DNA of 64,000 nt from an uncultured Candidatus Poseidoniales archaeon (GTDB lineage: Archaea > Thermoplasmatota > Poseidoniia > Poseidoniales > Thalassarchaeaceae). A program made the position numbers and the translations under genes. The stretch is taken from positions 43,571-107,570 of the forward strand of contig CACKMK010000002.1 of NCBI GenBank assembly GCA_902601345.1. Direction: 5' to 3'. This document shows, in pieces, positions 1,249 through 41,772 of the stretch (its first letter is position 1; each line of letters opens with the position of its first letter). The notes under the pieces were generated by a model that worked only from the letters and a program-made list of their open reading frames with translations, was not told the origin of the DNA and searched no databases.

Positions 1249-2751
1249 GTGAGTGCGTACGAAGAATTACTGACGAGACTGAAAGATATCGACTTAATTA
1301 GACAAATAGGGAGCCTATTGAGTTGGGATCAGGAGGTGTTGATGCCTCCGAAGGCGGCTCCTCTGAGGGCAGAGCAACTTGCTTGGATTTCGAAGACTGC
1401 ACATGAGAGGCTAACTGATGACAGAGTAGGAGAAATATTGGATGAAATTGAGTCCAATGATGATATGGATGTAATTAAATCGGCGAATATCAGGCTTGCA
1501 AGGGAGGCTTTTGACAGGGCAACGAAGTTGCCTACAGAGTTCGTTGAAGAGATGGCGAAGCATCGTTCCAAGGCTCTGATTTCTTGGACTGAGGCGAGGG
1601 AGAAGGACGATTTCTCAATTTTCCGTGATGACCTCGAAATAGCGATTAGACATGCGAGGATGAAGGCCGATTTCTTCGGATATGATGGTCTGAGATACGA
1701 TGCGCTGCTCGATCTTTACGAAAGCGGTCTAACCGTGGAAAGACTCGACCCACTGTTTTCGGGTCTTAGGGAAAATGTGACACCCCTGATCAAGGAAGTA
1801 GTGGAAAGGGACGAAGGGCCGGATTTCTCATGGGTTACAGAAAGCACATGGAGTCAGAAAGCACAGGAAGAGCTGAGCCAAAGTGTTTCTGAGGCAATAG
1901 GTTTCGACTTCGGGGCAGGAAGGAGGGATCTGTCCACTCACCCATTCTGTGGGGGGCCTAATCCCGATGATGTAAGGTGGACAACTCGCTATAGTGAAGA
2001 GGAGCCGTTCGGATCCCTGTTTGGTTCAATGCATGAAACAGGTCACGGTACGTACGAACAAGGTAGACCTAGGGATTTGGACTTCCAACCGGCAGGAAAG
2101 GCAAACGGTCTTGGGATTCACGAGAGTCAAAGTCGCCTCTGGGAGAATCAGGTAGGGAGATCCCGGGAATTTTGTGAATGGTCCATCCCGTTGTGGAGGA
2201 AGTTCTTCCCAGAAAATATGGACGGAGTCAGCGCCGAGCAACTATGGCAGGCAGTTAATTTGGTGAAGCCTGGTTTAATCAGGGTTGATGCTGATGAGGC
2301 CACATACAATCTACACATCATGATCAGGTACGAGATCGAAAAGCAACTTATTGCTGGCGAAATAGATGTAGATGATCTTCCTGATGCTTGGGACGAAATG
2401 TACCATGAATACTTGGGAATTAGAGCTCCTTCCCGTACACTGGGAGTTCTTCAGGATATTCACTGGTCAATGGGTGCAATCGGCTACTTCCCAACGTACA
2501 CTCTCGGGAATCTTTACGCTGCTCAACTGCTCGAGTCAGCCAGAAAAGATCTCCCAGAACACGATACTCAGATTAGGGAGGGGGACTTCTCACCACTACT
2601 CAATTGGATGAGGGACAATGTCCACTCGAGGGGAAGCGTGCTGGAGCCAGCGGAGCTAATCAAGGAAGCAACTGGTCAGGACCCTTCCCCTGATGCTTTC
2701 ATAAGATATCTTAGCTCAAAGGTTGAGAGGCTTTACGGAGTTAGTGCTTAG
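1249..2751 (+). CDS. carboxypeptidase Taq-type metallopeptidase (M32 family)
   Basis: 500-aa ORF with HExxH (MHETGHGTY), HESQSRLWEN and IRVDADEATYNLHI, the hallmark M32 motifs. GTG start. Confidence 0.9.
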   Translation: MSAYEELLTRLKDIDLIRQIGSLLSWDQEVLMPPKAAPLRAEQLAWISKTAHERLTDDRVGEILDEIESNDDMDVIKSANIRLAREAFDRATKLPTEFVEEMAKHRSKALISWTEAREKDDFSIFRDDLEIAIRHARMKADFFGYDGLRYDALLDLYESGLTVERLDPLFSGLRENVTPLIKEVVERDEGPDFSWVTESTWSQKAQEELSQSVSEAIGFDFGAGRRDLSTHPFCGGPNPDDVRWTTRYSEEEPFGSLFGSMHETGHGTYEQGRPRDLDFQPAGKANGLGIHESQSRLWENQVGRSREFCEWSIPLWRKFFPENMDGVSAEQLWQAVNLVKPGLIRVDADEATYNLHIMIRYEIEKQLIAGEIDVDDLPDAWDEMYHEYLGIRAPSRTLGVLQDIHWSMGAIGYFPTYTLGNLYAAQLLESARKDLPEHDTQIREGDFSPLLNWMRDNVHSRGSVLEPAELIKEATGQDPSPDAFIRYLSSKVERLYGVSA

Positions 2752-2767
2752 AAGTGGTGAGGTGCAC

Positions 2768-3853
2768 ATGACAGTATTCAGTCTGACTGACTACTCCTCC
2801 CTGGTCAGGGAGATTGGAGGGGAGTGTGCCTTCGTTAGAGTCTCAGGGAAATTACTGGTGTCGGGCTCCAAATCAGGAGAGGTTGCCTGCTGGGATTTGG
2901 ACAACGGTAAAGAGATGTGGAGATCAAAGTTCGAGGGTCCTTGTTCTAATGCGGATTCGAATAAAGATTTCCTGTTCTTCACAGAGTCAGATAGAGTTCA
3001 TTCAATTGTGTTGTCCTCTGGAGATGAGGCTTGGTGCGTGGAACTGGAGGGTTCTAGCGATCTTGTTAGAGTTTCTTCAGAGTGCGTTTGGGTGACTTCG
3101 TCTGTTTACAACTTCGAGATTCAGGACTATTCAGAGGGTTCGGTATGGAAAATTGACTATTCAGGAAAAGTTAGGTGGAAGGGTGACACGATAGGAAGAG
3201 CCTGGTCTCTATCTGATTTTCAAGGACAAGCAATCATGGGACTAAGTAGGCCTAAGTGTGGATATGCCATTGCATCCGAAACAGGAATTGAATATCTTGA
3301 GTTGGAAGAAAATAAGCCGATAACTGCTGGATGTAAATTAGATGGAGGAGGGATAGTTTTCGGGCATAGCAATGGATCGGTAACTGAGATATATGGAGAA
3401 GTCTGCTCTACCGTCAGCGTAGGAGACTCTGCGATCCGCGCGGTGGATTGCGGGACTAGTTGGGTTGCAGGGCTCGATTCTGGAGTCGTTTCAACCGGCG
3501 AATCCCTAGGATCATGGAAAATAGAGTCTTTTGGCTCCATTGATGTAGTTTCATTCGGTCCTTCGTTGGACGATGTCGCAGGCATATGGTACTCATCTTG
3601 GGACGGTAAAGGAGGAGTTTTCCTAGTAGACTCTTCATTTGGGAGTCTGCAGCTCGAGCTCTCTCACGAATCTAGGATAGTAACCTGTTTCGCTACTGAG
3701 CATACGATTTGCTTTGGAGATATTAGCGGATGCATACATGTAATCGAGAAGGAGGTTCTCCGGCGTCGTTTCGGAAGGCTCCCAGAAGGAGATATCGAAT
3801 CTGGAAGAGAATCGGAGCTTAGAAAGAAAATACGTGCACTGCGAGGTGCCTAA
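2768..3853 (+). CDS. hypothetical beta-propeller (PQQ/WD40-like repeat) protein
   Basis: Repeated motifs such as SGEVACWDLDNGKEMWR suggest propeller blades. The start is moved to ATG 2768 (preceded by GGTGAGGTG) to avoid overlap with the M32 gene. The ORF track starts it at 2723. Confidence 0.5.
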   Translation: MTVFSLTDYSSLVREIGGECAFVRVSGKLLVSGSKSGEVACWDLDNGKEMWRSKFEGPCSNADSNKDFLFFTESDRVHSIVLSSGDEAWCVELEGSSDLVRVSSECVWVTSSVYNFEIQDYSEGSVWKIDYSGKVRWKGDTIGRAWSLSDFQGQAIMGLSRPKCGYAIASETGIEYLELEENKPITAGCKLDGGGIVFGHSNGSVTEIYGEVCSTVSVGDSAIRAVDCGTSWVAGLDSGVVSTGESLGSWKIESFGSIDVVSFGPSLDDVAGIWYSSWDGKGGVFLVDSSFGSLQLELSHESRIVTCFATEHTICFGDISGCIHVIEKEVLRRRFGRLPEGDIESGRESELRKKIRALRGA

Positions 3854-3918
3854 TTTACAGTGGAAAAACACCCCAAAAACCCCCTATTTCCAGTGAACTG
3901 CTCCATTATTGACGAAAT

Positions 3919-3926
3919 GTTTATGT
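3919..3926 (+). promoter_or_regulatory. TATA-like box (GTTTATGT) with upstream purine-rich CGAAA, candidate promoter of the ncRNA
   Basis: It is the only A/T-rich element in front of the GC-rich structured block, about 25-30 nt upstream of the proposed 5' end at 3951. This matches archaeal BRE/TATA spacing from general knowledge. Confidence 0.3.
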
Positions 3927-3950
3927 GCCACCCATAACCCTGTGTTTCTT

Positions 3951-4523
3951 GCCGCTCCGGGGGAGTGGTGTGAGGGCGCTTCGGCGCGACTCGCGGGCCA
4001 CAAAAACCGAGCCCCGAAACCGGGGCGGTAAAACCGAAATCCGAAAGGAAATCGGGGAATGGCTGGAGCGTCTGTGGACGCAAAGGCCGCGGCGAATAAA
4101 TCGGACGAACTGGAGGTAACGAAAGGGAGAGCGAGATAGGAGCTGAAGAGATACACATGCGTAGGGTGAAGAGAATGAACCTGGGTCATGTAGGTGGGGA
4201 ACGAGGCAGAGATAACCGGACGCAAGGAAGGGGAAGGAAACCAAGGGAAACACCGGGCAACAAGGGCGGGGAGACCCGTGGAGAAGCCAGTATCGAGACG
4301 TGAAAGGAAAAGCGGAGACGAAGTACCAGAAGCGGATGCGGCGAGTGAAAGGGAGATCTATTACGAGTCGGAAAATGACAAAGGAAGAGCATGAAGTTCC
4401 GGAGTCGTCTACCCGGGGGAACCCGGGCCTTCGGGCCCGGGGGACACCCGGACCCTGCGGAGTTAACAGGGGGGGAAGCTCCCCCATGTGCTGAACCCCC
4501 TGTTGCTCCCACCTAATATCGGC
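3951..4523 (+). ncRNA. candidate large structured non-coding RNA, class unknown
   Basis: It lies in the 705-bp gap between convergent genes, which has only stacked low-complexity ORFs on both strands. Perfect hairpins are capped by UUCG (3976-3987, 4422-4441) and GAAA (4040-4049 inside 4034-4055). There is a 9-bp helix at 4465-4473/4496-4504. The 5' and 3' ends can pair (3951-3954 with 4520-4523, 3961-3965 with 4506-4510). The core is purine-rich on the + strand. Ends are approximate. Confidence 0.6.
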
Positions 4524-4558
4524 CCAGAAATTTCCTGAAGACTAGTGGAAACTACTGC

Positions 4559-6160
4559 TTATTCCATTGGACCAGTCATATCACCAGGTCTGACCCATTC
4601 TTCGAACTGCTGCTCATTCACCAGGTCCAGTTGGATAGCACTTTGCCTTAGAGTAAGTCCCTTCTCATGGGCATTCTTAGCGATTTTAGCTGCATTGTCG
4701 TATCCGATGTGTGGATTCAGAGCGGTAACTAGCATCAATGAGTTCTCGAGGTGCTCGGCAATCTTTGCTTCGTTTGCGCTGAGCCCGAGTATGCAATTTT
4801 CAGAGAAAGATACACAGCTATCTGAAAGCAGCCTTGTGCTATGCAGGAGATTATGGATCATCAACGGCTTGAAAACGTTCAGTTCGAAGTTCCCCTGACT
4901 TCCACCGATGGAGATAGCGACGTGGTTCCCCATTACTTGGCAACAGACCATAGTCATGGCCTCAGACTGTGTTGGATTGACCTTGCCAGGCATTATACTA
5001 GAGCCTGGTTCATTCGCGGGTAGAGAGAGTTCTCCGAAACCACATCTAGGTCCGGATCCAAGCCATCTCACATCATTGGCTATCTTCATCAATGAGGCTG
5101 AAAGTGTATTCAAAGCGCCAGAAGCTGCTACGATGGCATCGTGAGCTGCTAGTTGTGCAAACTTATTCTCTGCACTGATGAAAGGTAGGCCTGTTTTTTC
5201 TGAAATCTTACCAGCGACTATCTCTGCGAAATCGGGATGAGTATTGAGGCCGGTTCCAACTGCAGTCCCTCCTAGTGCTAGTTCGTACAAATCGTTCAGA
5301 GCCGTTTGAATTCTAATCAAGTCGGCATCCAACATCGACACGTAAGCACCAAACTCCTGTCCAAGTGTTAGCGGAACGGCATCCATGAGGTGGGTTCTGC
5401 CGATTTTGACTATGTCAGAGAACTCTTCCTCCTTCTCCGCTAAAGAATGTCGAAGTTTCAGTACTGATGGAATTAGTCGATGTTGTATTTCCTCAGCTGC
5501 AGCGATGTGCATTGCGGTTGGAAACGTATCATTACTAGACTGCGCGCGGTTTACATGATCATTAGGGTGTACCGGAGATTTACTGCCCAGCTTTCCTCCG
5601 GATATCTCAATTGCCCTATTCGCAACAACCTCGTTTGCATTCATGTTCGTCTGAGTCCCAGAGCCCGTCTGCCAAATCCTGAGGGGGAAATGGGAGTCTA
5701 GAACCCCAGAAATCACCTCTTCACATGTTTCCGTGATCAGTTTTCCAATGTCATCTTCCAGTACTCCGAGCTTGACATTTGTCTCTGCTGCTGCCTGCTT
5801 TAGGATTCCGAATGCACGAATCACAGATCTAGGCATTCTATCTTCTCCTATGTCGAAGTTGATCAGAGACCTTGCTGTCTGTGCCCCATAATATCTATCA
5901 GCAGGAACTTCTATGTCCCCCATTGTATCGGTCTCAACCCTTACTTTGAGATTGGTCTTGTTCGGTTTTCGAGACTTTTTCTCTCCAGAGTTCGGCTTGT
6001 TGATAACGGCTCCAGAAAGGGAGCTTTCAATCATCTTGGAAATAGTGGCAGATCTTCCCTCTCCTCTGCCCTTACCAACCCTAGCGTCCAATCTTCTAGC
6101 AATATCCTCAGGAATACTGACTGAAATTATTCTACGATCACCGACCCGATGTTTCGCCAT
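4559..6160 (-). CDS. fumC: class II fumarate hydratase with an N-terminal ribbon-helix-helix (CopG/NikR-like) extension
   Basis: [13 protein letters not shown] and [16 protein letters not shown] are fumarate-lyase signatures, and the TQSEA variant is FumC-type. The FumC-homologous part starts near aa 71 ([27 protein letters not shown]). Residues 1-50 read as RHH ([40 protein letters not shown]). Confidence 0.9.
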
Positions 6161-41698: not shown

Positions 41699-41772
41699 TG
41701 GAGCACGAGCCGGGATTTGCACCCGGGTCCATGGATCTGCAGTCCATTGCATAGCTGCTCTGCCACTCGTGC
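41699..41772 (-). tRNA. tRNA-Cys (anticodon GCA), CCA encoded
   Basis: The minus strand reads GCACGAG-UG-GCAG-AGCAGCU-AUGC-A-AUGGA-CUGCAGA-UCCAU-GGAC-CCGGG-UGCAAAU-CCCGG-CUCGUGC-U-CCA. It has a perfect 7-bp acceptor, a 5-bp anticodon stem and a 5-bp T stem. Discriminator U73 is typical for Cys. The D and T loops are non-canonical. Confidence 0.8.

Follow-up and report, generated by a model that had tools for sequence, protein, structure and literature searches.

What does the gap of about 700 nt between a beta-propeller open reading frame (ORF) and a convergent fumarase gene encode in an uncultured Candidatus Poseidoniales archaeon (Thalassarchaeaceae)? The question is raised by a 64,000-nt stretch of contig CACKMK010000002.1 (positions 43,571 to 107,570 of the forward strand), hereafter the window, in which a gene caller had placed an antisense ORF in this gap and an initial annotation had seen the purine-rich core of a candidate RNA. 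Comparative analysis shows that the gap holds what is predicted to be a conserved, highly structured and independently promoted noncoding RNA (ncRNA) of Marine Group II (MGII) archaea (Poseidoniales, Thalassarchaeaceae-type). By comparison with Rfam 15 and with the literature that could be searched, this RNA is a new family. We lean, with modest confidence, towards reading its purine-rich segment as a variable central domain in which G·A mini-hairpin modules are set on a conserved core. MGII archaea are uncultured and among the most abundant planktonic archaea, and to our knowledge almost nothing is known of their RNAs beyond rRNA, tRNA, RNase P RNA and signal recognition particle (SRP) RNA.

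Covariation supports a structured RNA on the plus strand

Homologs were retrieved with a DNA pattern derived from the invariant 5′ block of the RNA, which returned at least 120 metagenomic loci. About 12 of these were chance matches to unrelated, mostly high-GC sequence and were dropped (L089, L098, L099, L103, L113, L115 and L120 among them). The set includes at least 81 distinct full-length homologs of 539–889 nt. In the window, the RNA is placed at about 3946–4526 on the plus strand (~580 nt; Table 1). For 25 sequences of the 566-nt class, RNAalifold yielded a consensus structure of 133 pairs in 30 helices, with 98.2% of the alignment cells at these pairs being paired. Compensatory double changes were found at 38 pairs, compared with 16.8 ± 2.4 in column shuffles, and none of 500 shuffles reached 38. 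Sliding the partners by one to three columns as a control left only 7–11 pairs with compensatory changes. The plus strand was assigned on the basis of invariant G·U pairs, which would be C·A on the other strand, together with the GNRA and UUCG loops; the minus-strand fold is also weaker (z −1.8). The minimum-free-energy fold of the whole RNA, computed from the single sequence, reached a z of only −2.6, and many of its pairs are contradicted by covariation.

A search of the window against Rfam 15 at the gathering threshold found nothing at the RNA locus, and a permissive search of the locus gave chance-level matches only, the best being RT-13 with 18.7 bits against a threshold of 69.1. The RNaseP_arch and Archaea_SRP models matched neither at the locus nor elsewhere in the window; canonical RNase P and SRP RNAs of MGII archaea have been reported elsewhere in the genome (PMC5069720). 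A relative of ~1.3 kb (L010) had no Rfam family match either. The only gathering-level match in the 64 kb is a tRNA at 41702–41772 on the minus strand.

Alternatively, the region could encode a protein, either a small, charged and disordered one (for example from the 66-aa plus-strand ORF at 4194–4394) or the 188-aa product of the antisense ORF. Long stop-free frames do occur on both strands, and the exact antisense sequence is present in a protein collection, in a cluster of 195 members named 'hypothetical protein'; a look-up of contigs that carry this ORF returned no record. However, most alignment indels are not multiples of three, and substitutions preserve base pairs rather than codons. 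The long stop-free frames owe their existence to the T-poor composition of the sense strand and, as expected in such sequence, shift position between homologs. We consider a coding function extremely improbable, and the 188-aa ORF very likely reflects an annotation error. Annotation of MGII RNA genes on the wrong strand has been described before, as have 13 very highly expressed 'disordered-protein mRNAs' that recruit most archaeal reads (PMC5069720).

A loop–loop contact in the 5′ domain and conserved signals at both ends

Within the 5′ domain, the triloop of hairpin HP1 (3959–3961) covaries with the loop at 4019–4021 of the 4006–4029 hairpin. The covariation score of this pairing was 0.741, compared with 0.252 ± 0.056 for shuffles, none of which scored as high in 500 trials. 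Pair counts were GC17/UA6/AU3/GU3 and GU11/GC9/CG4/AU2/UA1, and the combinations seen include GGG:ACC, UUU:AAA, UCU:AGA, AGG:CUU, GAG:UUU and AGA:UUU. This pattern indicates that the two loops would form a tertiary kissing contact. The covariation surfaced in a long-range RNAalifold fold of the isolated 5′ domain, a fold that we did not adopt. A covariance model of the domain (R1) scored 92–139 bits in 27 of 27 loci in which the domain is not cut by a contig end and 63–96 bits in three copies that are cut.

Upstream of the RNA lies a promoter-like element resembling a transcription factor B recognition element (BRE) and a TATA box, whose GAAA.gTTTA portion every clade keeps, with unvarying spacing to the conserved 5′ block. 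With the usual archaeal spacing between TATA box and start, transcription would begin at about 3944–3950; a scan for bacterial-type promoters and terminators was uninformative for an archaeon. Further upstream, an inverted repeat begins 5 nt past the stop codon of the beta-propeller gene and precedes the RNA promoter. Possible roles are a site bound by a regulator or a hairpin at the 3′ end of the upstream mRNA. Among 18 cluster representatives, the GGAAA and TTTCC cores of the repeat show at least 90% conservation and no covariation, so that it looks more like the site of a dimeric regulator than like an RNA hairpin.

At the other end, a conserved GGCCC (4521–4525) follows the terminal hairpin at a distance of a few to ~35 nt across the homologs, often with T-runs after it. 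It is complementary to the invariant GGGCC at 3995–3999, and this pairing would compete with a predicted helix between 3995–3999 and 4450–4455. No covariation was seen for the GGCCC/GGGCC pairing, which we infer from complementarity only. The GGCCC probably marks the true 3′ end of the RNA or a closing helix.

The purine-rich segment resolves into covarying hairpins

Positions 4076–4375 are 74% purine, which is the highest value of any 300-nt segment on either strand of the 64 kb, where such segments average 50% (SD 6; 99th percentile 63%). The purine richness noted in the initial annotation is thereby borne out. Other stretches without long ORFs are only 40–57% purine, which answers the objection, raised in advance, that intergenic DNA of this genome might be purine-biased in general. 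In the core of the RNA (4090–4396), 88% of the unpaired positions are purines and 72% of the pyrimidines are paired.

Every coordinate given in that annotation proved correct when re-read in the sequence. Taken literally the annotation holds, but the meaningful features lie elsewhere than in the motifs and the periodicity that it listed. The motif that it described as reiterated, GAAAGG(A/G)A, is indeed locally enriched: the 566-nt RNA contains 4 copies where 2000 dinucleotide shuffles of it give 0.31 on average, and the whole window contains 19 where 7.6 would be expected. It does not behave as one conserved motif, however. Among 25 close relatives, the four sites retain it in only 7, 2, 8 and 3, respectively; 42 of 81 homologs lack the motif entirely; and the four listed copies occupy four unrelated structural contexts. 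GAAAGGA at 4043–4049 consists of the GAAA tetraloop and the 3′ arm of the inner stem of hairpin H3, and GAAAGGA at 4302–4308 is the internal loop plus a 2-bp stem of the irregular 4299–4334 hairpin. Of the two copies of GAAAGGGA, the one at 4121–4128 is the 3′ half of a mini-hairpin (module 1, described below) and the start of its tail; the other, at 4347–4354, makes up, with the third of the proposed 20-nt units, the 5′ arm and half of the GAGA tetraloop of the 4339–4370 hairpin.

The periodic block built of these 20-nt units does not exceed chance. Identities between the units are 65% and 40% and drop further in relatives, and an equal three-unit tandem arises in 94.5% of shuffles. Tandem Repeats Finder reported nothing in 3900–4560 even at a score of 30, and a general repeat search was likewise without the block. 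Units 1 and 2 correspond to the opposite arms of a single irregular hairpin (4299–4334), of which the 'GAGAC' in unit 2 supplies the GAGA tetraloop and the closing C. A large purine loop closed by two CCGG tetramers had also been proposed. The tetramers can pair in 90% of alignment cells, but the same was true in 458 of 500 shuffles, and the pairing shows no covariation. Covariation instead places the first CCGG within a mini-hairpin, and the second shares positions with a GGUG/CACC helix that also covaries.

The hairpins themselves recur across clades in related forms. The internal loop of H3 is GGA/GAA in other clades (L004, L005), and the 3×3 purine internal loop of the 4061–4088 hairpin, GGA/AAA in the window, is GGA/GAA in L004. 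The element at 4259–4285 is nearly invariant in all clades of alignment A2, with compensatory changes in its helix (helix 20). At the position of the 4299–4334 hairpin, L141 and L195 have a canonical GGA/GAA module. The 4339–4370 hairpin (−10.4 kcal/mol, z −3.1) shows compensatory changes at four of its five inner pairs and is represented in other clades by GGGGGA-GCAA-UCCCCC or CGGAGA-GAGA-UCUCCG. In the 3′ domain, the terminal hairpin at 4456–4511 bears a conserved C-rich segment, CUCCCCCAU. Two mutually exclusive pairings are found at its apex, GGGGGA/UCCCCC on the one hand and, on the other, an extended stem that includes a GGA/GAA loop and leaves the CUCCCCCAU loop exposed. Both show some compensatory changes, and the apex could be an alternative-conformer element. 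A by-eye search among the G-rich tracts found no covarying partner for the C-rich loop.

Table 1. Features of the RNA locus. Positions are those of the window unless a locus is named.
Feature	Positions	Strand	Basis or remark
Conserved body of the ncRNA	3948–4513	+	566 nt, between 5′ block TTGCCGCTCC and 3′ block TGCTCCCACC
5′ domain	3951–4029	+	helix covariation
HP1, GGG triloop	3951–3969	+	5′ domain
HP2, UUCG loop	3970–3994	+	5′ domain
Invariant GCGGGCCACA	includes GGGCC at 3995–3999	+	5′ domain
Further 5′-domain hairpin	4006–4029	+	loop partner of HP1
H3, CCGA-AA-UCC-GAAA-GGA-AA-UCGG	4034–4055	+	−9.3 kcal/mol, z −2.3
Hairpin GGCU-GGA-GCGUC-UGUG-GACGC-AAA-GGCC	4061–4088	+	outer and inner stems covary (helices 7, 8)
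Mini-hairpin module 1, CU-GGA-G-GUAA-C-GAA-AG, then purine tail	4110–4125	+	covariation
Mini-hairpin module 2, CC-GGA-C-GCAA-G-GAA-GG	4216–4231	+	covariation
Unpaired G/A tail of module 2, GGAAGGAAACCAAGGGAAA	4232–4250	+	within 28-nt purine run
AACAAGG-GCGGG-GAGA-CCCGU-GGAGAA	4259–4285 (hairpin 4266–4279)	+	most conserved core element
Irregular hairpin CGU-GAAA-GG-AAAAG-CG-GAGA-CG-AAGUA-CC-AGAA-GCG	4299–4334	+	helices 21–23, compensatory changes
Hairpin with GAGA-capped inner stem (4347–4362)	4339–4370	+	helices 24, 25
3′ domain	4397–4511	+	UUCG-capped hairpin 4422–4441; long terminal hairpin 4456–4511
GAAAGGA	4043–4049, 4302–4308		initial annotation
GAAAGGGA	4121–4128, 4347–4354		initial annotation
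28-nt purine run	4224–4251		initial annotation
CCGG	4216–4219, 4253–4256		initial annotation
Three 20-nt units	4295–4354		initial annotation
BRE/TATA-like promoter (GACGAAA .. TTTATG)	3911–3925	+	sequence conservation
Inverted repeat CAGTGGAAA-N20-TTTCCAGTG	3858–3895	+	arms read from sequence
Conserved GGCCC	4521–4525	+	downstream of terminal hairpin; nearly all cluster representatives
Spurious antisense ORF, 188 aa, rich in S/P/F/R/L	3921–4487	−	gene-caller annotation
Beta-propeller ORF (PQQ/BamB-like)	2723–3853	+	upstream of RNA
Class II fumarase/aspartase gene	4559–6160	−	downstream of RNA, convergent
Beta-propeller/fumarase junctions without RNA	L008:4033–4057, L015:5596–5610		Poseidonia (MGIIa)

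A 16-nt mini-hairpin is the true repeat

The true repeat of the segment is a 16-nt mini-hairpin, C(C/U)-GGA-N-GNRA-N′-GAA-GG, followed by a G/A tail with the consensus GGAAGGAA. In the window only two copies are free of mismatches, modules 1 and 2. At both of these orthologous positions the closing pair flips between C-G and G-C, and the outer pair varies among C-G, U-G and U-A. The counts are GC17/CG8 and CG13/UG10/UA2, respectively, for module 1, which has an equivalent hairpin in all clades, and CG12/GC11 and CG18/UG3/UA2 for module 2, whose loops are GCAA, GAAA or CUUG. The strict module occurs 154 times in the RNAs and not once in 1.27 Mb of flanking Poseidoniales DNA. When no pairing was required, GGA-N6-GAA gave 138 distinct instances. 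The closing pair is C-G or G-C in 89 of them, and the loop is GCAA, GAAA or GUAA in 82; the search that required pairing gave the loops GCAA (109), GAAA (55), GUAA (9) and CUUG (2). The same design of stem, symmetric purine–purine loop, stem and tetraloop recurs in H3 and in the 4061–4088 hairpin, and is possibly shared by the 3′ hairpin.

The internal loop and the tail are better conserved than the tetraloop, which is CUUG in two sequences, or the closing pair. In low-GC clades (L081, L130), GGA/GAA becomes AAA/AAU and the tail becomes A-rich, from which it follows that purine character and hairpin shape are conserved and GGA is not. Loop variants in other clades comprise AAA/AAU, UGA/GAU and GA/AA, all of which keep tandem purine–purine pairs.

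The initial annotation had suggested that the G·A-rich segments might form kink-turns recognized by L7Ae; K-loops are a related possibility. Many RNAs are bound by archaeal L7Ae, and tandem 5′-GA/5′-GA mismatches are possible in every GGA/GAA loop. Yet the loop is a symmetric 3×3 one that lacks the defining asymmetric 3-nt bulge. Moreover, the pair stacked on G·A is a covarying Watson–Crick pair (CG12/GC11 and GC17/CG8) directly beneath the tetraloop, leaving no open K-loop at the apex. The suggestion failed on these points, and we regard it as very unlikely. In sequence the module loop would correspond to 5′GGA/3′AAG, a well-studied 3×3 loop. A 3×3 loop of three consecutive sheared G·A pairs is documented as a stable type by work in the reference list of PMC5393185, namely Chen et al. 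2005 and Chen and Turner 2006.

Module copy number ranges from 0 to 6 by the strict pattern (0 to at least 6 in relatives) and scales with RNA length, and its change by duplication accounts for most of the length variation. Two homologs carry recent duplications. At L090:2060–2192, the H3 hairpin is present as a 26-nt unit repeated in tandem 5.1 times at 98% identity, and at L145:4218–4736 a 106-nt unit is repeated 2.9 times, with five tracts of AAGGAAGGGG micro-repeats. The 5′-domain covariance model also detects two divergent forms of ~1.25–1.3 kb, at L007:2286–3640 and L010:5591–6950, both on the minus strand. They share the usual 5′ start and a similar style of 3′ hairpin, and contain many GCAA, GAAA and UUCG hairpins as well as a ~300-nt internal duplication that includes the 3′ hairpin element. 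L007 is labelled Thalassarchaeaceae and holds a 100-N gap.

Modules on a conserved core: function or tolerated expansion?

How could these properties fit together? In the variable central domain, pyrimidines are confined almost entirely to short covarying helices and nearly everything else is A or G, which produces the purine bias. The A/G parts comprise GNRA tetraloops, symmetric GGA/GAA-type loops and linkers with slippage-prone AAGGAAGGGG repeats. If the GGA/GAA loops adopt stacked sheared G·A pairs, each module would be a rigid, continuous and nearly all-purine rod that does not mispair with its neighbors, and linkers made only of purines would prevent mispairing among the many short hairpins. 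The modules would then act as peripheral expansion elements on a core that consists of the 5′ domain with its kissing contact, the 4259–4285 hairpin and the 3′ hairpin, and might offer repeated docking surfaces for a ribonucleoprotein or a higher-order RNA assembly. Recognition would take place through the conserved internal loop and the tail rather than the tetraloop, given that loop and tail are better conserved, tetraloop and closing pair are free to change and copy number is variable.

Several observations weigh against this reading. The L013 and L081 clades lack module 2 together with its tail, and the two long forms, which are 52–67% purine, have no canonical modules; the modules thus cannot be essential to the core function of the family, and they could be tolerated products of slippage. 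Taken in isolation, the mini-hairpins have nearest-neighbor energies of only −2.9 and −3.6 kcal/mol, which shuffled sequences equal, and it is covariation that supports their existence. No partner protein or RNA was identified in this analysis, and transcription, RNA ends and abundance are all things that we infer. Finally, in two Poseidonia (MGIIa) genomes only 14–24 nt separate the beta-propeller ortholog from the fumarase gene and no RNA gene intervenes, and the RNA is consequently either lineage-specific at this locus or located elsewhere in those genomes.

Some of these points would be explained by neutral expansion, in which slippage in a G/A-rich tract generates tolerated hairpins and AAGGAAGGGG repeats while only the 5′, central and 3′ elements are functional. 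The near-identical tandem copies (98%) and micro-repeats, the gain and loss of modules between clades, including the loss of module 2, and the long forms without modules are in agreement with such a process. Against it stand the two orthologous modules, which are present in most clades and whose closing pair has switched between C-G and G-C (8 of 25 sequences for one module, 11 of 25 for the other). These compensatory flips, together with the conserved internal loop, imply purifying selection on the hairpin, and unpaired positions stay purine-only even where G drifts to A. On balance, we find purely neutral expansion doubtful, although it is a rival to be taken seriously.

Returning to the modules as functional elements on a conserved core, one may speculate further that the RNA represents the first archaea-specific class of large ornate ncRNAs. 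Its expandable G·A-zipper array would then be a tunable multivalent platform, with copy number setting the valency in different ocean lineages. By analogy, such a platform could titrate a purine-loop-binding protein, as CsrB does, or drive RNA self-assembly into a higher-order particle like those of ROOL and GOLLD. We put this forward as a tentative idea that is rather unlikely to hold in full.

Gene order and conservation of the locus

Gene order around the RNA is nearly constant across the loci: M32 carboxypeptidase, beta-propeller protein, RNA, convergent fumarase and PPIase. The fumarase of the window is most closely related to that of a single-cell genome of Candidatus Poseidoniales (Marine Group II), with 97% identity, and the RNA-bearing gap downstream of the fumarase gene is kept in several species. 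One locus (L177) has a full-length RNA copy with none of the four usual neighbors detected in 8.9 kb downstream, which could reflect either a true departure from the synteny or a fault of the assembly. A scan of viral contigs found no copies of the RNA.

The beta-propeller protein evolves fast (23–35% identity between clades), and the ends of the RNA are nearly invariant. As a single-copy RNA of 0.5–1.3 kb at a fixed locus whose ends are far better conserved than the neighboring protein gene, it is expected to have a cellular function under strong selection. We considered the beta-propeller gene as a dedicated partner of the RNA; this candidate is weakened by the two Poseidonia genomes, where its ortholog adjoins the fumarase gene in the absence of the RNA. 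A weak covariance-model match in one of them (L008) fell inside the beta-propeller coding region and was discarded. The beta-propeller protein of the window has a basic, probably helical C-terminal tail (…LRRRFGRL…ELRKKIRALRGA) and no obvious signal peptide.

The assignment also corrects an annotation error, as databases list the locus as a hypothetical protein read from the antisense strand, in the cluster of 195 members. It further serves as a warning that purine-rich RNA genes can pass for 'disordered protein' genes in metatranscriptome studies.

Comparison with known systems

A protein-sequestering RNA like CsrB, RsmY or RsmZ was the comparison drawn by the initial annotation. In such a scenario, the modules and their G/A tails would titrate a sequence-specific RNA-binding protein, with a capacity that depends on how many copies are present. 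The likeness is that a short GGA-containing purine motif is reiterated on and between hairpins in variable number, which differs widely between lineages here; unpaired tails with GGA lie between the hairpins in this clade, and the better conservation of loop and tail would suit a binding site. A reiterated GGA element of varying copy number is supported, in an arrangement that would be consistent with multivalent binding. Against a sponge, apical loops are GNRA or UUCG, and the GGA of the module sits in a symmetric internal loop opposite GAA. In low-GC clades GGA is replaced by AAA/AAU and the tails are A-rich (L081, L130), some clades have 0–1 strict modules and the long forms none. The large, invariant folded core with its tertiary kiss is unlike a simple sponge, and 1.27 Mb of nearby DNA, a limited sample in which competing mRNA targets might lie, contained no such module. 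The CsrB, CsrC, RsmX, RsmY and RsmZ models gave no match in 3700–4700 even at E up to 10, and the 64-kb window contains no match of the CsrB/RsmY/RsmZ type at the gathering threshold. We know of no CsrA in archaea, the protein being regarded as bacterial. Taken together, a sponge is an improbable explanation.

Among structured RNAs of the same archaeal group, Tan1 (Thalassoarchaea ncRNA 1, Hou et al. 2016) is an abundant structured RNA reported as 229 nt long (PMC5069720). The RNA described here resembles it in being a structured ncRNA; judged by the published description of Tan1, to which the comparison is limited, the two would differ in length (566 nt or more here).

At the level of motifs, the 5′-GGA-3′/5′-GAA-3′ loop of the module would be identical in sequence to the 3×3 sheared G·A class. 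That class (Chen et al. 2005; Chen and Turner 2006) is a structural motif and not an RNA family, whereas here the loop forms the core of up to six or more hairpins. We know of no earlier description of its repeated use as a hairpin core in one RNA. A natural RNA built by repeating a G·A-zipper hairpin is relevant to folding rules and to RNA design.

The closest parallel in architecture is to the ornate bacterial RNAs (OLE, GOLLD, ROOL, HEARO and raiA). Like this RNA, they exceed 500 nt, consist of many short covarying helices with GNRA and UUCG caps and a tertiary loop–loop contact, occur in one genomic context and have no obvious function. No Rfam model of OLE, GOLLD, ROOL, HEARO or raiA matches the RNA described here. 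Unlike these bacterial RNAs, it is archaeal, has an extremely purine-rich core built of a duplicating mini-hairpin and, in a single order, spans lengths between 539 nt and ~1.3 kb.

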